From a virus (lineage: Duplodnaviria; Caudoviricetes): 54,940 nucleotides of DNA. The stretch is from positions 1 to 54,940 of IMG/VR virus record IMGVR_UViG_3300027749_000137; one strand, 5' to 3'. Numbering within the stretch: position 1 is the stretch's first letter; each line of letters opens with the position of its first letter. Below are positions 11,066 to 39,222 of the stretch, piece after piece. A program made the position numbers and the translations under genes. The notes under the pieces are model-generated. The model was not told where the DNA came from. It was given only the letters and a program-made list of their open reading frames with translations, and searched no databases.

Positions 11066-13385
11066 TTTTTACTCCTAATTGTTGCTGTTTTAGCATCAAA
11101 TTTGCCTGATCCATCTGGGATTTTTCCGCTTGACGGGCCTGATCCAACTGCAATTTGGATTGATCAATCTGGGTTTTGGCCTGATCGCTGGCAGCATTCT
11201 GCTGAAGCTCCTGTTTCTTCAAATCAATCAATGGGTCCGGGGGCGGATTACCTTGCAATTGGTTTTGCAAGTCCTTCACTTCCTTAAAGAACTGGGCTAC
11301 CTTAAGCGCAACCAATGCTTCACGCTGCAATGGGGACACCATTTGATCTGGGTCCGTGCCGTACTGCTTAAACAAGTCAGCTTCCACTGTCTCTTCTGCC
11401 TTTACCGTGATGTGATCAAAGATATGCTTTTGCAGAGTAACCGCCACGTTGGGCATTCCTTGCAGCATGGGCGACAAACCAAACATGATGTGCGTCATGA
11501 TGTGCGCATCATGCTGTTGGCCAGCAAAAGCTTTGAGCGGTGATCCATCCAATGCCTGTGCGTTTTCGCTTGCAGGATCTTTTGGCTTGTCCACGTTTTG
11601 CGTGTTTAAAATTGAATCAATATCCCGCACACCAATTGCTTGGTACATGCGGTAGTACGACTCGTACATATTGTGCATCTGTGGTGCGCTTTGGGCCAGT
11701 TGCAACTGGGTCTGCGCCATTGTGATGCGCTGCGCCACCGAGAAGATGTTGGGGTCAGACACCGGCAATACATCAATGCGGTCATCAAAGTCTGCGCGTT
11801 TAATAATGCGGGACTCGCCGGGGACATCGTACGGATAAGTATCGGGTAGAAACTCTCCAAAACCTTTGGCCAGCAACTGGAACTCCAGCTTCTGTGCGTA
11901 GTGCAAGCGCTTGTGGATGGCCGACATGACCGAGCTGCCTTTTTCCAGCAGCGCAATCGTGGTTCCAACAGCAGCATTTTGGTTGCTATCGCCAACTTGC
12001 ATGTCGGTGATCGAAGCCATACGGCGACCAGCATCCACGCAGAAACCAAGCAGTGCAAACAACGTTTGGCTTGGCTCTTTGTAAGGCAACGGTAGCAGGG
12101 ATGACTGCAACTCTGCGCCGCCTGCATCCATATCGCGGAACTCACCGGGCTGCAATGGCACGTCATCGTTCATGATACGTGCGCCCTTGGCCTTGAAGCC
12201 CGCTGGCAGGTTAGCAAATGTACCTGCATCGACCAACTGCTGCAATGCAGCCGAAGAAGTCTTGGACAAACCGCCTACCAAGTGCAAGAAGCCAAGGCCA
12301 TAAGCCCCCGGACCTTGCACCAAGACGTAGTGCACGTAGTACTGGACGCGCCGATGCTTCTTATCGCCCTCTTTCCAGTTGCGGCGGATGCCTACAACGT
12401 CACCAGATACCTCATCCAAGGTAATGATGTACGGCAGTTGGATGCCAGTCGGCTCCCCTTCTTCATCCTTGTCCTCAAACCCGGGCAGATCGTAATCAAT
12501 TTGGAATTCCAACAGGTTGACTTCTTCTGTATCAGGGCTGGGCTGGATGCCAGTAACTTTGTCCACAGCCTTTTGGATGATGCTGGGATTGTTGTTGGAC
12601 ATCGAAGCAGGTTCAGCAGAGTCTAAATACTGACCGCGAACCACGGCTTTGCGATACGCATTGGCGGACATTGGAACGCGATGCGTAATACGCTCGCATT
12701 CGCTCATGACTGAAGAACCGTTGTACGGGATGTACAGGTTGTCAGCCAGTACCAAAGCGCTAACCATGCGCCCTTTGTCCTCGTCGTAGTACACCTTCTT
12801 GAACGTCGATCCGCCGTAGCCTGTGTAGAACAGCAGTTGGTCAAACTCAGGTGTGTACTCTTCCATCACCGTAGTGATTTCGTAGTTCATAAAGTCGCGC
12901 ACGCGCTGCGCCTGCATCAGCTTCTCGCGGGTTTCCTTGCCCAACACTTGTGTGCGCACCGGGCCGTCAGCGGGCATCAGTTCCTTGAGCGCCTGCGCTT
13001 GGAATTGAACGATGCTTTCGGTTAGCAGAGGATGCTGCACGCCGCACGCGCCTTTGAACGGACGGGTACGCTCGTCCAAAGTAAAGCCAAGGAGCTTTAA
13101 ACCCTTGCTGTACTGATCCTCCCAGTCTTTGCGGGAAGATTTGTCAGCGTCAAACATGTCCAAAAGCTCTTGCGAGATGTTGGCCAGCACGGATTCCTCG
13201 ACCACCTCGGCAAGGTTGCTGTCAAAGGGGACTTCGGCATCGTCTTCTGCACCGATGTCAACCAGCACATCGCCGGTTTCCTTATCAAAAGAGATGTTGA
13301 CATCGGGCAATGGACCGTCATCGACCTCCACATCCATGCTGCCCGCAGGCAGATCTTCAGAGCGTATTGATTTTTCAACTGACAT
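11055..13385 (-). CDS. Portal protein
   Basis: 776 aa with HPLLTESIVQFQAQA, GSTFKKVY, DAGTFANLPAGFK and SAIHKRLH; Gln-rich C-terminal coil as in P22-like portals. Confidence 0.9.
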   Translation of the reverse strand: MSVEKSIRSEDLPAGSMDVEVDDGPLPDVNISFDKETGDVLVDIGAEDDAEVPFDSNLAEVVEESVLANISQELLDMFDADKSSRKDWEDQYSKGLKLLGFTLDERTRPFKGACGVQHPLLTESIVQFQAQALKELMPADGPVRTQVLGKETREKLMQAQRVRDFMNYEITTVMEEYTPEFDQLLFYTGYGGSTFKKVYYDEDKGRMVSALVLADNLYIPYNGSSVMSECERITHRVPMSANAYRKAVVRGQYLDSAEPASMSNNNPSIIQKAVDKVTGIQPSPDTEEVNLLEFQIDYDLPGFEDKDEEGEPTGIQLPYIITLDEVSGDVVGIRRNWKEGDKKHRRVQYYVHYVLVQGPGAYGLGFLHLVGGLSKTSSAALQQLVDAGTFANLPAGFKAKGARIMNDDVPLQPGEFRDMDAGGAELQSSLLPLPYKEPSQTLFALLGFCVDAGRRMASITDMQVGDSNQNAAVGTTIALLEKGSSVMSAIHKRLHYAQKLEFQLLAKGFGEFLPDTYPYDVPGESRIIKRADFDDRIDVLPVSDPNIFSVAQRITMAQTQLQLAQSAPQMHNMYESYYRMYQAIGVRDIDSILNTQNVDKPKDPASENAQALDGSPLKAFAGQQHDAHIMTHIMFGLSPMLQGMPNVAVTLQKHIFDHITVKAEETVEADLFKQYGTDPDQMVSPLQREALVALKVAQFFKEVKDLQNQLQGNPPPDPLIDLKKQELQQNAASDQAKTQIDQSKLQLDQARQAEKSQMDQANLMLKQQQLGVKNGQ

Positions 13386-35591: not shown

Positions 35592-35840
35592 TCAAGCGTG
35601 GGGCTCAAGCCAGAAGAAGTCGCTTGGCCAAACAAGCAGCGGAGTATCGGGGCCCATATAGGCACTTTCGATATTGTATTCAATAAACTCCCGCGCCTCT
35701 TCTACGCTCATGCCGTCTCGCTTTTGCAGGATATAGCGAATGGCATCGGCGTTATATATAAGAACATGTATACGTTCATTGCCGTTCCACGTAAAGCATG
35801 GGCCAATGATGGCCTGATCGTATCCATCTAACCTTTTCAA
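35592..35840 (-). CDS. Conserved small phage protein
   Basis: LDGYDQAIIG...EEAREFIEYNIESAYMGPDTP. Confidence 0.75.
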   Translation of the reverse strand: MKRLDGYDQAIIGPCFTWNGNERIHVLIYNADAIRYILQKRDGMSVEEAREFIEYNIESAYMGPDTPLLVWPSDFFWLEPHA

Positions 35841-37372
35841 AATGGGCTCCCTTCTGTGCGGGTGGTGTGTGTTTCAAAAGGAGCATCCTGTTTCTCAAAG
35901 CAAGGAATCCTCCAGCAGCGCGTGGTCCGTGATTTAAGCAGCAAGGATATGGGCTCGCCACCGAGGTCCCTGATCCGTTGTGCAATCTTGGGAGCAGTCA
36001 GCCCCATGAAATTGTTGCGCTTTAGGTGGGACATCAGGTCCTTCATCCTGAAGTAAGTCTTGGCCTCAGAATCATCATTCCACGGACGGCCCATGAGTAT
36101 TTCATCGCGGTCCAATGCCTGCTGCATGTGGGTAGTGAACTCTTCCAGCAGATCCATAAATTGACCCGTAACGCTGGTATCTTCGCTAGCCTCAGTAATT
36201 TGCTCAGTCTCCACCATTTCTTTGAGCAGTGCATTGAGTAAATTCTCCCAGTCTTGCTTGCGCAGCGTGGGCGGCAGCAGGTTCAGACGCTCAAGGCAAG
36301 CTTTCTGAAAAGCCATCTGATTGAACAGGTTGTCAGTTTCCAGCTCGACCCTACGGCCATTGATATCAAGGAACCACAGCGGCGGCTCGCTAGCGTACTT
36401 AGACAAAGAACTGATCTTTGGTGCGTCAGGGCCGTTGCCCCCGATCCCAAACTTGCGTGTCCGGCACAGGCCAGAATTGCAAAAGGAATTGAGCGGCATG
36501 TCCTTACACTTGTACATGTAATCTTTTTTGTTCAATTGCTTTAGGATCACCTGCACTTCATTGTTAGGCAGCGGTGGGGATACATACTTGTAGTTGTACT
36601 CGGCCAGCTTGTCTTCCCAACCAGCGGGAGCCAGCTTCTTTAAGTAGATCCCGATATTAAACAGGCCGTTGTTACGTGTGCCTTCAGGAAAGCCTTGAGC
36701 GCAAAGAGCCTGTAGGCAGGGCGGACCATCCTTGATAGGGCTGTCCGGCTGCTTTGGGGGCTCAGGGAAGGCCAGTGGAGATGTCTGCACATTGGCTTCG
36801 TACAGCGTAAAAAATTCCTCCAGCGAAGCGGCAGATCCGTCTGCATTAAAGGCATAACGTGTTCCGTTATCACCAGCAAAATAAGGCAGGTTTAGGAAGT
36901 TGCCGGTATCCCCGCGCTCAACCAAAATCTCGGCCTGCTTGGGAAAGATCTCACGCCCTGCCTCACCCAACAATGCTGCTGAGGTTTGCAGGTAGTGCTG
37001 CATGTCGGCAGCCGGTATTGGCTCCCGAACAAATAAGAAGACGTGTGCGCCGCCGGACTTGCTGCGGCAGACAACTAACGGGAGTTTGAGCGCAGCAATT
37101 CGCTGCACAAGGCCCAAATGGTCAAGGGGATACTGATCAATATCAATGCAACCCCATATACAACTATTATCAGCGCGAATAGGAATGACCCCAAGACTAG
37201 GCTCAACGCCGTCAAGATGCTTGATCCAGAGGTCCTCTGTTGGCGGCTTTCGGACCACCGTGGCTTTACCTGCTTGTTTTCCATCACCGCGCTCCGATTT
37301 GATTACGTATGTCCCATAGGCAATATCCAGCCCGCTGAATATTGCCTGAAATTTTTCAAGTTGATCTTGCAT
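35837..37372 (-). CDS. AEP-superfamily primase with C-terminal PriCT-like region
   Basis: WGCIDID, RSKSGGAH, GNFLNLPY, PPCL and EGTRNNGLF motifs. Confidence 0.8.
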   Translation of the reverse strand: MQDQLEKFQAIFSGLDIAYGTYVIKSERGDGKQAGKATVVRKPPTEDLWIKHLDGVEPSLGVIPIRADNSCIWGCIDIDQYPLDHLGLVQRIAALKLPLVVCRSKSGGAHVFLFVREPIPAADMQHYLQTSAALLGEAGREIFPKQAEILVERGDTGNFLNLPYFAGDNGTRYAFNADGSAASLEEFFTLYEANVQTSPLAFPEPPKQPDSPIKDGPPCLQALCAQGFPEGTRNNGLFNIGIYLKKLAPAGWEDKLAEYNYKYVSPPLPNNEVQVILKQLNKKDYMYKCKDMPLNSFCNSGLCRTRKFGIGGNGPDAPKISSLSKYASEPPLWFLDINGRRVELETDNLFNQMAFQKACLERLNLLPPTLRKQDWENLLNALLKEMVETEQITEASEDTSVTGQFMDLLEEFTTHMQQALDRDEILMGRPWNDDSEAKTYFRMKDLMSHLKRNNFMGLTAPKIAQRIRDLGGEPISLLLKSRTTRCWRIPCFEKQDAPFETHTTRTEGSPF

Positions 37373-37390
37373 CAGGCATCTCTATAAGAT

Positions 37391-37471
37391 GGGGGTACTC
37401 GCTGCGTCTGTGTTTGACCCTTTAAATCAGGCTGCAAATACCGCAGCAACGCCAGCATCCGCTTTCCCCCC
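37391..37471 (-). ncRNA. Candidate structured RNA between the SSB and primase genes
   Basis: GGGG/CCCC closing stem, GAA/AGUA internal loop, CUG/CAG helix and two inner hairpins with G-U pairs. Confidence 0.55.
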
Positions 37472-37476
37472 GAATA

Positions 37477-38244
37477 TCAAAACGGTGCTGGCCCGCCAGC
37501 GGTGACATCCTCATCAGCGTGTTTGACTTTCACGTCACCAGCGCTTACCGAAGAGGAAAAAGCTTTGGCGGCGTGGTACACGCTCATGTCATTAATCGGC
37601 CCAATGCGCTCGACTTCCCAGCCGTACCATTTACCCTTGTCGTTGGACTCAGCCTGAGTTGTCAGACGATAAAGGTGTGAATACATCGGTGGCGTGTATG
37701 CGCCATTCTTACCCATCAACTTGGTGGACATCATCATGGAATTCCACTTGCGCGACTTCTTCAGTTGCGTGGACTTCATGGTGATCAAGGCAGGCTCAGG
37801 GATGCCATCATCGCTAATCACCATCACATAATGATTGGCGGTGTTTTCGATGTAGTTCCCGTTGTCAAGGTAATCCTTGTTGTCGCCCGGTTCGCGGTGC
37901 GTGCGACTCAAAACGTCAGACGTGGCCGGGTAGATCGCAATCGGAGCGCCCGAACCAACTCCACGTGGTGCCCACTCAATGTACTGACGTACATAGGCGC
38001 AAGGCACAACGATCATCCCCTTTTTGCCGTCATACAACGTACCATTTACAGTGTTGTAAACCATACCGGGCATCGCACCATCGACCTCACCAACCTCGGG
38101 GGAGGTATTGGTCAACAAGCGCAAGAACGGCAGAGCAAAATCATCCTGATTCATCGACTCAAAGCCGCTGGATGCATCCTGTTCAAAGTCATTCACCAAA
38201 GCAATTGCTTGCTCGCTTTTCACTGCTACTTCTGTCTTAGCCAT
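37477..38244 (-). CDS. Putative single-stranded DNA-binding protein
   Basis: Replication-module position; MKSTQLKKSRKWNS, NDKGKWYGW and a C-terminal acidic...PF tail. Confidence 0.7.
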   Translation of the reverse strand: MAKTEVAVKSEQAIALVNDFEQDASSGFESMNQDDFALPFLRLLTNTSPEVGEVDGAMPGMVYNTVNGTLYDGKKGMIVVPCAYVRQYIEWAPRGVGSGAPIAIYPATSDVLSRTHREPGDNKDYLDNGNYIENTANHYVMVISDDGIPEPALITMKSTQLKKSRKWNSMMMSTKLMGKNGAYTPPMYSHLYRLTTQAESNDKGKWYGWEVERIGPINDMSVYHAAKAFSSSVSAGDVKVKHADEDVTAGGPAPF

Positions 38245-39194: not shown

Positions 39195-39222
39195 AGTGTA
39201 CAATACTTTTTCCGGTTGTCAA
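39195..39222 (-). promoter_or_regulatory. sigma70-like promoter of the replication operon
   Basis: TTGACA-N16-TACACT in the divergent gap. Confidence 0.6.

Follow-up and report, generated by a model that had tools for sequence, protein, structure and literature searches.

What does an irregularly paired sequence of 81 bases do between two replication genes of a tailed freshwater phage, and does it act as RNA? The sequence lies in a 54,940-nt stretch of viral DNA (Caudoviricetes; IMG/VR record IMGVR_UViG_3300027749_000137), here called the window. Its minus-strand operon (~32.2-39.2 kb) has, as the original prediction held, one sizeable gap. This gap of 104 nt harbors a single copy of the element, placed 5 nt 3' of the stop codon of a probable single-strand DNA-binding protein (SSB) gene and 18 nt 5' of the primase start codon. 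In the direction of transcription, the parts are:

37477..38244, minus strand: upstream gene, encoding a Pam3_Gp34-like protein ending ...GGPAPF (Pfam PF23977, E = 2.8e-64)
37479-37477, minus strand: stop codon of the upstream gene, read from the sequence
37472..37476, minus strand: 5-nt spacer UAUUC from stop codon to stem, with C at -1
37391-37471, minus strand: candidate structured RNA, 81 bases between the probable SSB gene and the primase gene
37467..37471, minus strand: outer stem, 5' strand GGGGG, partner of 37391-37395
37464..37466, minus strand: GAA strand of the putative S-turn (loop E / sarcin-ricin type) internal loop
37456..37463, minus strand: 5' arm AGCGGAUG of the second conserved module, opposite 37400-37407
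37453..37455, minus strand: P2 helix, 5' strand CUG, partner of 37408-37410
37411..37452, minus strand: variable payload, two hairpins
37447-37443 with 37435-37431, minus strand: payload hairpin GCUGC/GCAGC
37429-37415, minus strand: payload hairpin UGAUUU-AAA-GGGUCA
37408..37410, minus strand: P2 helix, 3' strand CAG
37400..37407, minus strand: 3' arm ACGCAGCG of the second conserved module, with AC as the 2-nt spacer variant
37396..37399, minus strand: AGUA strand of the putative S-turn internal loop
37391..37395, minus strand: outer stem, 3' strand CCCCC
37388..37390, minus strand: single-stranded 3' tail AUC, departing at +2 from the family consensus ACC
37380..37385, minus strand: AUAGAG, 7-12 nt 5' of the primase start, conserved at this locus
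37372, minus strand: ATG of the primase gene
35837..37372, minus strand: downstream gene, archaeo-eukaryotic-type primase (Pfam AEP-TOTE, E = 1.5e-11)

The downstream gene had been called a primase, and its PHROG family agrees (phrog_21866, primase, E = 1.8e-96). The call of an SSB upstream is plausible, given the Pam3_Gp34-like family, and unproven, given that the PHROG family, phrog_2402, is of unknown function and that structure matches are middling. The AlphaFold2 model (mean pLDDT 74.9) matched the PhiC31 RDF (Z 7.5), the BRCA2 OB fold (Z 5.9) and T4 gp32 (Z 4.8), while Foldseek returned nothing at E <= 0.001, the PDB no sequence match and the ESM Atlas only the protein's own family. The product is probably a single-strand DNA-binding protein. 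Its C-terminal P-F tip is common to 38 of the 110 upstream proteins of the element family. Almost every one of the 56 distinct intergenic regions at the SSB-primase locus keeps AUAGAG next to the primase gene, with or without the element; it is probably the ribosome-binding region.

The minus-strand layout had been described correctly: GAA faces AGUA above a G/C stem, and a second helix and two hairpins lie farther out. Between the second helix and the S-turn, the arms of the second module interleave G-C, C-G and G-C pairs with A.G, G.A, A.G, U.C and G.A oppositions; one relative (L027) has Watson-Crick pairs in place of this loop, with the register unchanged. The folding energy of the element is unremarkable: the minimum of -32.6 kcal/mol (z -0.84) is equalled by 40 of 200 shuffles and belongs to an alternative fold specific to the window, the described fold reaching -20.9 against -31.3 kcal/mol over 91 nt. 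It is therefore sequence comparison, not thermodynamics alone, that raises the element above chance.

This comparison confirmed that the element is a real, conserved folded RNA. Both helices covary across the relatives, with 82.7% of the cells paired against 67.0% in shuffles (none of 500 as high) and 30-44% when the partner columns were slid. Across 64 sequences, the innermost pair of the outer stem is GC in 38, CG in 17, UG in 4 and UA in 2. The second pair of P2 is UA in 45, CG in 16 and UG in 3, never unpaired, and the third is GC in 53, AU in 7 and GU in 1, with 3 unpaired. The inner G-C/C-G pairs beside the S-turn are invariant and are thus consistent with a flanking helix, yet uninformative. 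The argument that the G-U pairs work only on the transcribed strand was borne out, with 47 G-U pairs against 11 A-C mismatches at well-formed stem positions, and flanking coding sequences place the element in sense orientation 93 times and in antisense 10 times. Between the window and its relatives L002 and L003, the arms are 95-97% identical, the flanking coding sequence 84-85% and the payload only 35-64%; the arms are under stronger constraint than the neighboring coding sequence.

GAA opposite AGUA, singled out by the original prediction as a classical S-turn, proved to be the most conserved feature of the family. It is kept in protein-anchored sets, that is, sets not chosen by the motif: 21 canonical and 3 minimal examples among the 56 intergenic regions of a first locus, and 26 of 60 at a second. 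We infer the S-turn geometry from the strand sequences, which resemble the sarcin-ricin / loop E hairpin near the 5' end of 23S rRNA in placing AGUA opposite GAA between Watson-Crick clamps. The 23S rRNA of a host-type genome, Cupriavidus (L225), reads GCGGC-GAA-(12 nt)-AGUA-GCUGC, the same design as in our family. The motif of the family differs in standing at the base of a mobile mRNA element and in being followed by ACC, and there is no sign of its belonging to rRNA or having arisen from it. The spacer of the 3' arm is AC in 63, U in 56, AU in 5 and otherwise in 4 of 128 distinct copies. A pseudoknot joining the ACC tail to the payload was rejected: payloads contain GGU 70 times against 66.3 +/- 5.1 in shuffles, which is no enrichment.

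A covariance model built on 64 relatives found a single copy in the 54.9-kb window (62.5 bits, E = 3e-14). The next match, at 12887-12936, was rejected as a second copy (14 bits, inside a 776-codon ORF). A scan of the window for the pattern of the stem and S-turn gave 3 matches against 2.3 +/- 1.5 in shuffles, the element alone having a 5-bp stem. Beyond the window, phages and prophages yielded at least 141 distinct copies with the same arms, and each of two pattern scans matched at least 120 stretches, a lower bound on abundance. The element is not private to this operon; its family is widespread and portable and occurs beside many different genes. It is one payload class of a wider superfamily with a common handle, namely a G/C stem of 4-6 bp, a GAAA/RAGUA S-turn-type loop directly above it and a single-stranded ACC after it; this conserved 3' tail had been overlooked in the original prediction. 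In the class of the window, the handle is followed by a second irregular helix (GCGGAUGCYR opposite YRG-N1-2-GCAGC) and then by variable hairpins, two in the window copy and, in most relatives, one followed by a 5-8-nt 3' bulge. Of the 78 distinct matches listed for the superfamily, 60 are non-canonical, keeping the handle with the second conserved loop swapped for unrelated payloads. Two minimal members (L051, L067) consist of a single irregular hairpin, devoid of junction or pseudoknot, and six loci carry tandem arrays (L082, L146, L166, L065, L092, L115). Some copies lie in non-coding regions adjoining another conserved RNA.

The carriers are phages and prophages of freshwater and soil Betaproteobacteria, with hosts mostly in the Burkholderiales. 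Isolate genomes with a copy include Cupriavidus sp. H19C3 (C1:305481-305557) and the Comamonas strains of L204, L207, L217 and L222. Among cultured phages, blastn with the element gave only short chance matches covering <=34% of the query; a 701-nt region matches one cultured-phage record, DSL-LC04, in which the gap, of 45 nt, holds a plain hairpin. The family is large and absent from Rfam. Rfam 15 gave no match at the gathering threshold in the whole window and, at E <= 10, only sR53 (11.2 bits against a threshold of 49); in 19 related loci it found only tRNAs, and in 7 further loci nothing relevant at E <= 0.1. Full-text literature searches and term look-ups in PMC10690425 and two 2026 preprints yielded no account of the motif, although the supplementary candidates of PMC10690425 (thousands, unnamed, from IMG/VR) may include the element. 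Hammerhead and kink-turn were rejected by inspection, the core strings being off the consensus.

Where the copies sit is also conserved. A same-strand ORF stops <=16 nt 5' of the stem in 110 of the 141 listed copies, at 5-7 nt in 70 of those 110. Annotated SSBs, from several unrelated families, make up 26 of the 95 upstream ORFs tested, and other upstream genes encode Tad2-like and Acb2/Tad1-like proteins; some neighbors are anti-defence genes. The downstream genes are very diverse. In 64 of 135 copies, a ribosome-binding motif and an ORF start (>=50 codons) follow within 45 nt, which leaves no room for a promoter. In 7 of 140 copies, a strong sigma-70-type promoter is positioned to begin the transcript with the opening base of the stem, an arrangement seen at 8 of 2800 control positions.

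The element is also portable. Three copies (L046, L117, L153) are 100% identical over the span GGGG through CCCCACCUU, and on either side of it their identity falls to background; the flanks are at background level in ~35 of 42 pairs with similar payloads. Identity between copies begins and ends at the predicted RNA boundaries. In two pairs (L087/L118 and L102/L134), an identical inner part is joined to different outer stems, as if the element had been placed within a pre-existing GC hairpin. At the two protein-anchored loci, the same slot is filled, variably among relatives, by plain GC hairpins or by handle modules; the plain alleles at both loci are followed by U-rich tracts, as in GGGGGC-AUCAU-GCCCCC-UCUUUCUUC.

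Among the 141 listed copies, the tail is A at +1 in 97, C at +2 in 122 and C at +3 in 118, and the base after it is not A and is U in 88. At -1, C predominates (92 copies) over A (32) and U (15), and the stem has 4-6 bp in 124. In the window, an unpaired C37472 precedes G37471 and the tail is AUC, while L002 and L003 end in ACC. The end of the element is thus tRNA-like. In PMC11143913, the GGU of the P15 loop of bacterial RNase P is described as pairing with the discriminator base, C74 and C75, and the non-tRNA substrates of the enzyme as including phage C4 RNA and operon mRNAs.

A second, independent intergenic slot points the same way. Its alternatives with a ...CCCC-ACC end include L374, which folds as a cloverleaf whose canonical T arm (GUGGG-UUCGAUC-CCCAC) lies flush against the 3' strand of a 9-bp stem, with ACC following. 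Hairpins resembling a T arm number 3 among 181 S-turn elements, where 0.35 would be expected. Of 120 loci scanned with ARAGORN, 8 have tRNA genes, and only in L181 is one directly adjacent: a tRNA-Leu gene, with 5 nt between its CCA and the start of the element. ARAGORN called no tRNA or tmRNA gene in the window and none of the elements in 129 loci.

Our leading reading, which we hold tentatively and at somewhat less than even confidence, is that the element is an intercistronic signal for mRNA processing and stability, shaped like the acceptor end of a tRNA and read most likely by RNase P. The original prediction had named, as candidate roles, processing, a regulatory element setting the SSB:primase ratio, or a small RNA. 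The element would be transcribed within the replication-operon mRNA and mark there, like punctuation, the boundary between cistrons. With its unpaired C at -1, G at +1, helix and then A-C-C, the base would imitate the acceptor end for the host enzymes that handle tRNA ends: RNase P would cut 5' of the helix, and exonucleases arriving from the 3' side would halt at ACC. Such processing would uncouple the abundant upstream message, which encodes SSB-type proteins, from that of the downstream enzymes, leaving a protected 5' or 3' end, and may free the folded RNA.

Like the non-tRNA substrates of RNase P, among them the C4 RNA of phages P1/P7, members of the family have a G-initiated helix after an unpaired base, in most copies with a single-stranded purine-C-C behind it, and lie between cistrons or at the start of a transcript, the slot-mate L374 being a tRNA mimic. 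They differ from those substrates in mostly having no T arm, in C at -1, in the AUC of the window copy and in the additional S-turn, and their cleavage is a prediction. The precursor of 4.5S RNA and the tRNA punctuation of mitochondrial transcripts are further parallels of the RNase P type. Several features count against RNase P as the reader. The AUC tail deprives the window copy of the equivalent of C74. E. coli RNase P prefers U at -1, and the listed elements mostly have C. In the window element, there is no T stem-loop ~12 bp from the putative cleavage site, and a 4-6-bp stem above that site together with a mostly absent T arm makes a fixed 12-bp measure not evident. A 5' cut would strip the upstream SSB message of its 3' hairpin, which fits the link to the upstream gene poorly unless the 3' cut is what matters. 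Recognition by RNase P also leaves the strict conservation of the S-turn and second helix unexplained, which hints at another partner.

RNase III sites of T7 and REP stabilizer hairpins are irregular as well, have conserved internal loops, lie in 5' leaders or between genes of a polycistronic mRNA and set the relative stability of its segments. They occur many times per genome, whereas the element occurs once, carries an ACC tail and has no long regular duplex; it is common to unrelated phages and not repeated within one.

The conserved loops could instead form a pocket or platform to which a protein or small ligand binds, its occupancy governing how the next gene is translated or whether transcription ends just downstream, as with an operator or riboswitch. 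Proteins classically bind S-turn loops. The arrangement of conserved nucleotides in internal loops, covarying closing helices and free distal hairpins is how aptamers and protein sites are built, and the arms are more conserved than the adjoining coding sequence. On Comamonas chromosomes, moreover, a minimal copy lies in a non-coding leader, 3' of paired CTGT-N8-ACAG boxes, ~40 nt 5' of a strong terminator and 5' of an exonuclease-family gene. We nevertheless judge this reading unlikely. The exchange of the second loop for unrelated payloads is unlike a single ligand pocket, the downstream genes are very diverse, and inspection found no conserved alternative pairing with the ribosome-binding region. 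Recognition by the SSB of its own message is improbable, since the upstream proteins come from unrelated families.

Placed 3' of genes needed in bulk, the element might also be a leaky intrinsic terminator or attenuator, an elaborated form of the plain GC hairpin of its relatives, that keeps transcription into the genes of primase, helicase and polymerase below that of the SSB gene. This agrees with the relatives at two loci that have a GC-rich hairpin and then a U-rich tract, and with UUU within +3 to +10 in 58 of the 141 listed elements. We consider it rather unlikely, however. The conserved ACC separates the stem from any U-tract; in the window, the stem is followed only by AUCUUAUAG, with no adjacent U-tract, in line with the earlier statement that a U-tail is missing, and a terminator consensus scan did not flag the window element. 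The 64 copies that run straight into the next gene leave no promoter room, and the 7 promoter-proximal copies stand at the very start of the transcript. A separate terminator-like hairpin follows the element in 8 of 135 copies in the scan, clearly so in five (L084, L204, L207, L217, L222), and the conserved loops would be superfluous for termination.

An extension of the tRNA-end reading, which we regard as quite doubtful, is that the handle is a portable mimic, passed among unrelated phages, that brings host tRNA-processing enzymes to gene boundaries for cutting of phage mRNAs and so frees a stabilized payload RNA of ~70-100 nt with a trans-acting variable part. This extension offers no reason for the copies to favor the 3' ends of SSB-type and SOS-linked genes.

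The emphasis may shift further from the mRNA, to a free small RNA cut from the message and acting in trans, the handle being a scaffold and the payload the active part, as a decoy or regulator of host or defence factors. One handle carrying many recurring payload classes, the tandem arrays, the non-coding copies beside another conserved RNA, the anti-defence genes among the neighbors and the end of copy identity at predicted RNA boundaries would suit such a role. Payloads differ between near-identical phages, so that no conserved target is evident, and most copies are wedged tightly between two genes; we find this reading improbable.

Just as improbable, in our estimate, is a selfish miniature mobile DNA element, of MITE/REP type or inserted into hairpin loops, whose fold would be a substrate for single-strand DNA recombination and from which the phage would gain little. 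The 100% identical copies in unrelated flanks, the presence or absence among close relatives at two loci and the inner parts shared between different outer stems are what such an element would produce. Correia, ERIC and bcr1 sequences are likewise short, portable, imperfect palindromes, intergenic, transcribed as hairpins and MITE-like. In contrast to them, the element is single-copy: the search gave one match each in the 68 loci with a match, of 100 searched, and one in a 7.2-Mb host genome of Cupriavidus, which has no native chromosomal copy besides that of the prophage. The boundaries of identical pairs exhibit no target-site duplication and, apart from the stem, nothing like a good terminal inverted repeat, and no transposase is linked. 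The sense-strand bias, the G-U excess, the greater constraint on the arms than on coding sequence and the selection on non-canonical loops also speak against it, and payload exchange by recombination through the conserved arms would account for part of the mobility without transposition. A new class of self-cleaving ribozyme, for which the original prediction had suggested a check, is very improbable: new ribozymes have been found before among small, conserved, irregular motifs between phage genes, sometimes in tandem, as here, but the minimal members have no junction or pseudoknot and no known ribozyme family matches.

A folded RNA that no catalogue lists thus recurs at phage gene boundaries in freshwater and soil Betaproteobacteria. 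Unrelated phages exchange it whole; it is more constrained than the genes it adjoins, and is tied to one class of genes, those of single-strand DNA-binding proteins, across protein families with no common ancestry. If the element mimics a tRNA end read by RNase P or a related enzyme, a portable RNA part would set the expression ratios of phage operons, and synthetic operons would gain a small insulator or processing tag of natural origin. Should the mimic also release its payload, phages would have their own equivalent of tRNA punctuation and of small RNAs scaffolded on tRNA. If instead the S-turn binds a host protein, the element would point to a new host factor in the expression of phage replication genes.

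The replication operon that carries the element (the S-turn RNA module between the gp34-like gene and the primase gene) runs on the minus strand of the 54,940-base window from about 39.2 kb to 32.2 kb:

Minus strand: Pam3 gp32-like and gp33-like proteins
37477-38244, minus strand: Pam3_Gp34-like protein
37391-37471, minus strand: the element
37380-37385, minus strand: AUAGAG, 7-12 nt 5′ of the primase ATG
35837-37372, minus strand: archaeo-eukaryotic-type primase
Minus strand, other members: small ORF, UvrD-type helicase, family A DNA polymerase

Adjacent genes touch or overlap except where 104 nt separate the gp34-like gene from the primase, in agreement with the original prediction of one sizeable gap in the operon; the minus-strand sequence it gave for this gap matches the actual reading exactly. 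After the stop codon and 5 nt, the 5′ half of the element reads GGGGG, GAA, AGCGGAUG and CUG, two hairpins lie between CUG and CAG, and the 3′ half comprises CAG, ACGCAGCG, AGUA, CCCCC and the tail AUC. Of the two neighbours proposed, SSB and primase, the primase stands, and SSB is plausible but not proven, since the fold matches of the predicted protein model are only middling: the PhiC31 recombination directionality factor comes first (Z 7.5), ahead of OB-fold ssDNA binders (BRCA2 OB fold, Z 5.9; T4 gp32, Z 4.8). The AUAGAG motif, kept in nearly all 56 intergenic variants at the locus (L001-L081) independently of the preceding hairpin type, may be an unusual ribosome-binding sequence. Just 5′ of the gp32-like gene, a promoter-like site (TTGACA-16 nt-TACACT, 39195-39222, minus strand) may drive the operon.

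An IMG/VR search with the gp34-like protein gave 373 stretches, from which 80 loci were kept. With phage DSL-LC04, the one cultured relative at this locus, and the window, and excluding L040, which is without a primase, these provided 81 intergenic regions corresponding to 56 distinct sequences. By our own reading of these 56 sequences, 19 are plain GC hairpins with a U-rich tail (43-62 nt), 21 contain the element with the window's arms, the two strands of the second conserved irregular module (GAAAGCGGAU.. / ..GCAGCGAGUA), around very different interiors of 10-90 nt, 3 are minimal versions, 9 combine the same stem and GAAA/..GUA loop with different arms, and 4 are other complex hairpins. L065 has two tandem elements. 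In L027, Watson-Crick pairs replace the irregular part of the second module in the same register, so the pairing scheme is fixed. Between the window and its closest relatives, L002 and L003, coding flanks are 84-85% identical, arms 95-97% and the interior 35-64%.

Homologues, whose collection had been proposed as a check, exist at this locus and far beyond it. The two-arm pattern was found in at least 120 IMG/VR stretches, and only 7 of the 120 matches listed have gp34-like and primase neighbours; the family thus extends well beyond the operon studied here. Bacterial genomes contribute 22 stretches with the pattern, chiefly from Burkholderiales (Comamonas, Cupriavidus, Limnohabitans, Polaromonas, Xylophilus and others), 4 of which are without the stem and look by eye like chance matches. 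The nameable flanks of the bacterial copies are prophage-like, with SSB, small terminase, Tad2-like and Acb2/Tad1-like genes. Pooling yielded at least 128 distinct copies; with prophage copies included, at least 141 have a well-formed outer stem. The arms of these copies are dictated by the pattern used to find them, whereas the outer stem, P2 (the covarying helix, CUG/CAG in the window), the tail and the context are not.

In 64 copies aligned with MAFFT, pairing holds at the 15 proposed positions in 82.7% of cells, compared with 67.0% after shuffling (0/500 as high). Covariation, proposed at the outset as a test, is borne out by a score of 0.377 versus 0.134; with the partner columns slid out of register, only 30-44% of cells pair. 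At the innermost position of the outer stem, GC occurs in 38 copies, CG in 17, UG in 4 and UA in 2, and the second P2 pair is UA in 45, CG in 16 and UG in 3, never unpaired. By our sums, well-formed stem positions hold 47 G-U pairs against 11 A-C mismatches, and elements lie sense to the callable flanking coding strand in 93 cases and antisense in 10. The transcribed strand is therefore the one that carries the structure, as had been argued from G-U pairs in the window. A covariance model built from this alignment finds one copy in the window (62.5 bits, E = 3e-14), one match per locus in 68 of 100 loci searched and never two, and a single copy in a 7.2-Mb Cupriavidus genome. In the window and related loci, no Rfam 15 family matches the element, and ARAGORN calls no element a tRNA. 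No description of the motif turned up in the full-text literature searched, which for PMC10690425 covered the article text but not the unnamed candidates listed in its supplements.

Folding energy is unremarkable (-32.6 kcal/mol, z = -0.84, with 40 of 200 shuffles folding equally well; z = -1.08 on the opposite strand). The minimum-energy fold of the window copy pairs differently, in a way peculiar to the window, and scores -31.3 kcal/mol against -20.9 kcal/mol with the described pairs enforced.

Among the 141 copies, the base 5′ of the stem is unpaired (C in 92) and the outer stem has 4-6 mostly G-C pairs in 124. Above it, GAA(A) faces (R)AGUA, and members of the window's class continue with G-C and C-G pairs, then purine-purine and U-C oppositions. 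This GAA/AGUA between clamping helices is the sarcin-ricin/loop E consensus, as originally recognized, and 23S rRNA of a host-type genome contains a hairpin of the same design. The 3′-side spacer to P2 is 1-2 nt long (AC 63, U 56, AU 5, other 4; 128 copies). The variable region most commonly forms one hairpin with a 5-8 nt 3′ bulge, and its classes recur. After the stem come A (97), C (122), C (118) and U (88 of 141), then U/A-rich sequence; the window has AUC where the family has ACC. A pseudoknot between this tail and the payload, the part above the handle, was rejected, since GGU is not enriched in payloads. A looser scan for the handle only (G/C stem, GAAA/RAGUA S-turn loop and 3′ single-stranded ACC) gave at least 78 distinct new matches; only 18 of the 78 listed have the window's arms, so the handle is common to many payload types, some of which recur. 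Eight non-canonical members (L228, L249, L227, L255, L258, L282, L291, L233) share a payload hairpin with loop GCUUCACAUAC or GCUUCGCAUAC.

Pairwise comparison of the 126 copies with enough flank (120 nt) revealed 42 pairs with payload identity of at least 80%, in about 35 of which both flanks are at background (0.53-0.62; unrelated average 0.58). L046, L117 and L153 match without a difference from the first stem G through CCCCACCUU and are unrelated outside. In the pairs L087/L118 and L102/L134 it is the inner part that is identical, within outer stems that differ and are still complementary. The module or its inner part has therefore been exchanged between unrelated phages.

A same-strand upstream ORF of at least 45 codons, with its stop within 16 nt of the stem, precedes 110 of 141 copies, the spacer being 5-7 nt in 70. 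Pfam assigned, among 95 upstream ORFs tested, 4 SSB (PF00436), 5 Enc34-type ssDNA-binding, 6 DUF669 and 1 Pam3_Gp34; PHROGs added 10 SSB (phrog_18154/7364) and identified the single DUF669 ORF tested (L083) as SSB and the single Enc34-type ORF tested (L087) as Gp2.5-like SSB. Annotated single-strand DNA-binding proteins thus make up 26 of 95, in mutually non-homologous families. Other recurrent families with acidic C-termini, of unknown function, include phrog_27714 (9 ORFs) and phrog_862 (3 ORFs), and the C-terminal tip is P-F or similar in 38 of the 110 proteins. The genes downstream of the element vary widely (DNA polymerase, primase, RusA, terminase, head protein, many unknowns). In L181, the element lies 5 nt after a tRNA-Leu gene.

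Several copies have particular surroundings. In two prophage-like contigs (L203, L213) the upstream gene is of anti-defence type, not SSB (Acb2/Tad1 hairpin domain; Tad2-like). Minimal copies in Comamonas (L204 5291-5325, minus strand; L217, L222, L207) sit in an ordinary chromosomal, non-prophage neighbourhood (nitroreductase, thiolase, dicarboxylate symporter), with two CTGT-N8-ACAG boxes resembling LexA sites about 200 nt upstream and, about 40 nt after the element, a strong terminator followed by a same-strand Exo_endo_phos family gene; this could represent a leader or small RNA linked to the SOS response. Directly 3′ of the module, L157, L140, L114, L211 and L098 have a second conserved non-coding element without Rfam match, a long hairpin starting ACACGCAUGRGGAUUG and closing ...CAGYCGUGUUGG. 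About 150 nt 5′ of the element, L105, L140 and L173 share a non-coding stretch (..GGCAGCUCAGCCG..CUGCGUAGAGC..CCCCGUAGACUGGAACCUGCGGAG..) matched by neither ARAGORN nor Rfam. A small hairpin with recurring loop GGAAAGAC lies just 3′ in L091, L097, L095 and L211, the copies whose outer stem is A/U-rich.

Downstream of phrog_27714, a gene family unrelated to gp34-like, the picture is the same. There, 74 loci gave 60 distinct intergenic regions, which we read as 9 empty, 15 plain GC hairpins, 21 canonical elements, 5 other S-turn elements and 10 other complex hairpins, of which at least 7 have the 3′ end ...CCCC-ACC. One of the ten, L374, has a cloverleaf fold with a 9-bp stem, a canonical T arm adjoining the 3′ strand, and ACC, and is called by neither ARAGORN nor Rfam. 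T-arm-like hairpins occur in 3 of 181 S-turn elements (0.35 expected).

That the element is a conserved RNA structure within the mRNA is certain. A processing role does not explain why the S-turn and the second irregular helix are so strictly conserved, why SSB-type genes are linked to the element or why the window copy has AUC as its tail. A protein or ligand site is an unlikely alternative. An efficient terminator is ruled out, because essential genes follow without room for a promoter (a ribosome-binding motif and the next ORF lie within 45 nt 3′ in 64 of 135 copies), because some copies are predicted to start transcripts (7 of 140 lie just 3′ of a strong sigma-70-type promoter, with the predicted start at the first stem base; control, 8 of 2800 positions), and because a separate terminator clearly follows five copies (the terminator scan flagged 8 of 135); a leaky one is improbable. 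We give little credence to a selfish mobile element, side-by-side views of near-identical copies having displayed no target-site duplication, and equally little to a released trans-acting RNA; a ribozyme is very unlikely.

We tentatively favor a processing and stability signal. A junction G after an unpaired base, a short G/C helix and a single-stranded A-C-C, with no conserved fourth base after it, appear common to all classes, and, according to passages of PMC11143913, it is these very features of the acceptor end that bacterial RNase P recognizes in a substrate. The outright tRNA mimic L374 in the phrog_27714 slot fits such a reading, and together these two points are why we prefer it. The element would be a putative processing and stability signal exploiting the host tRNA-end machinery, of which RNase P specifically is a possible, if doubtful, reader.
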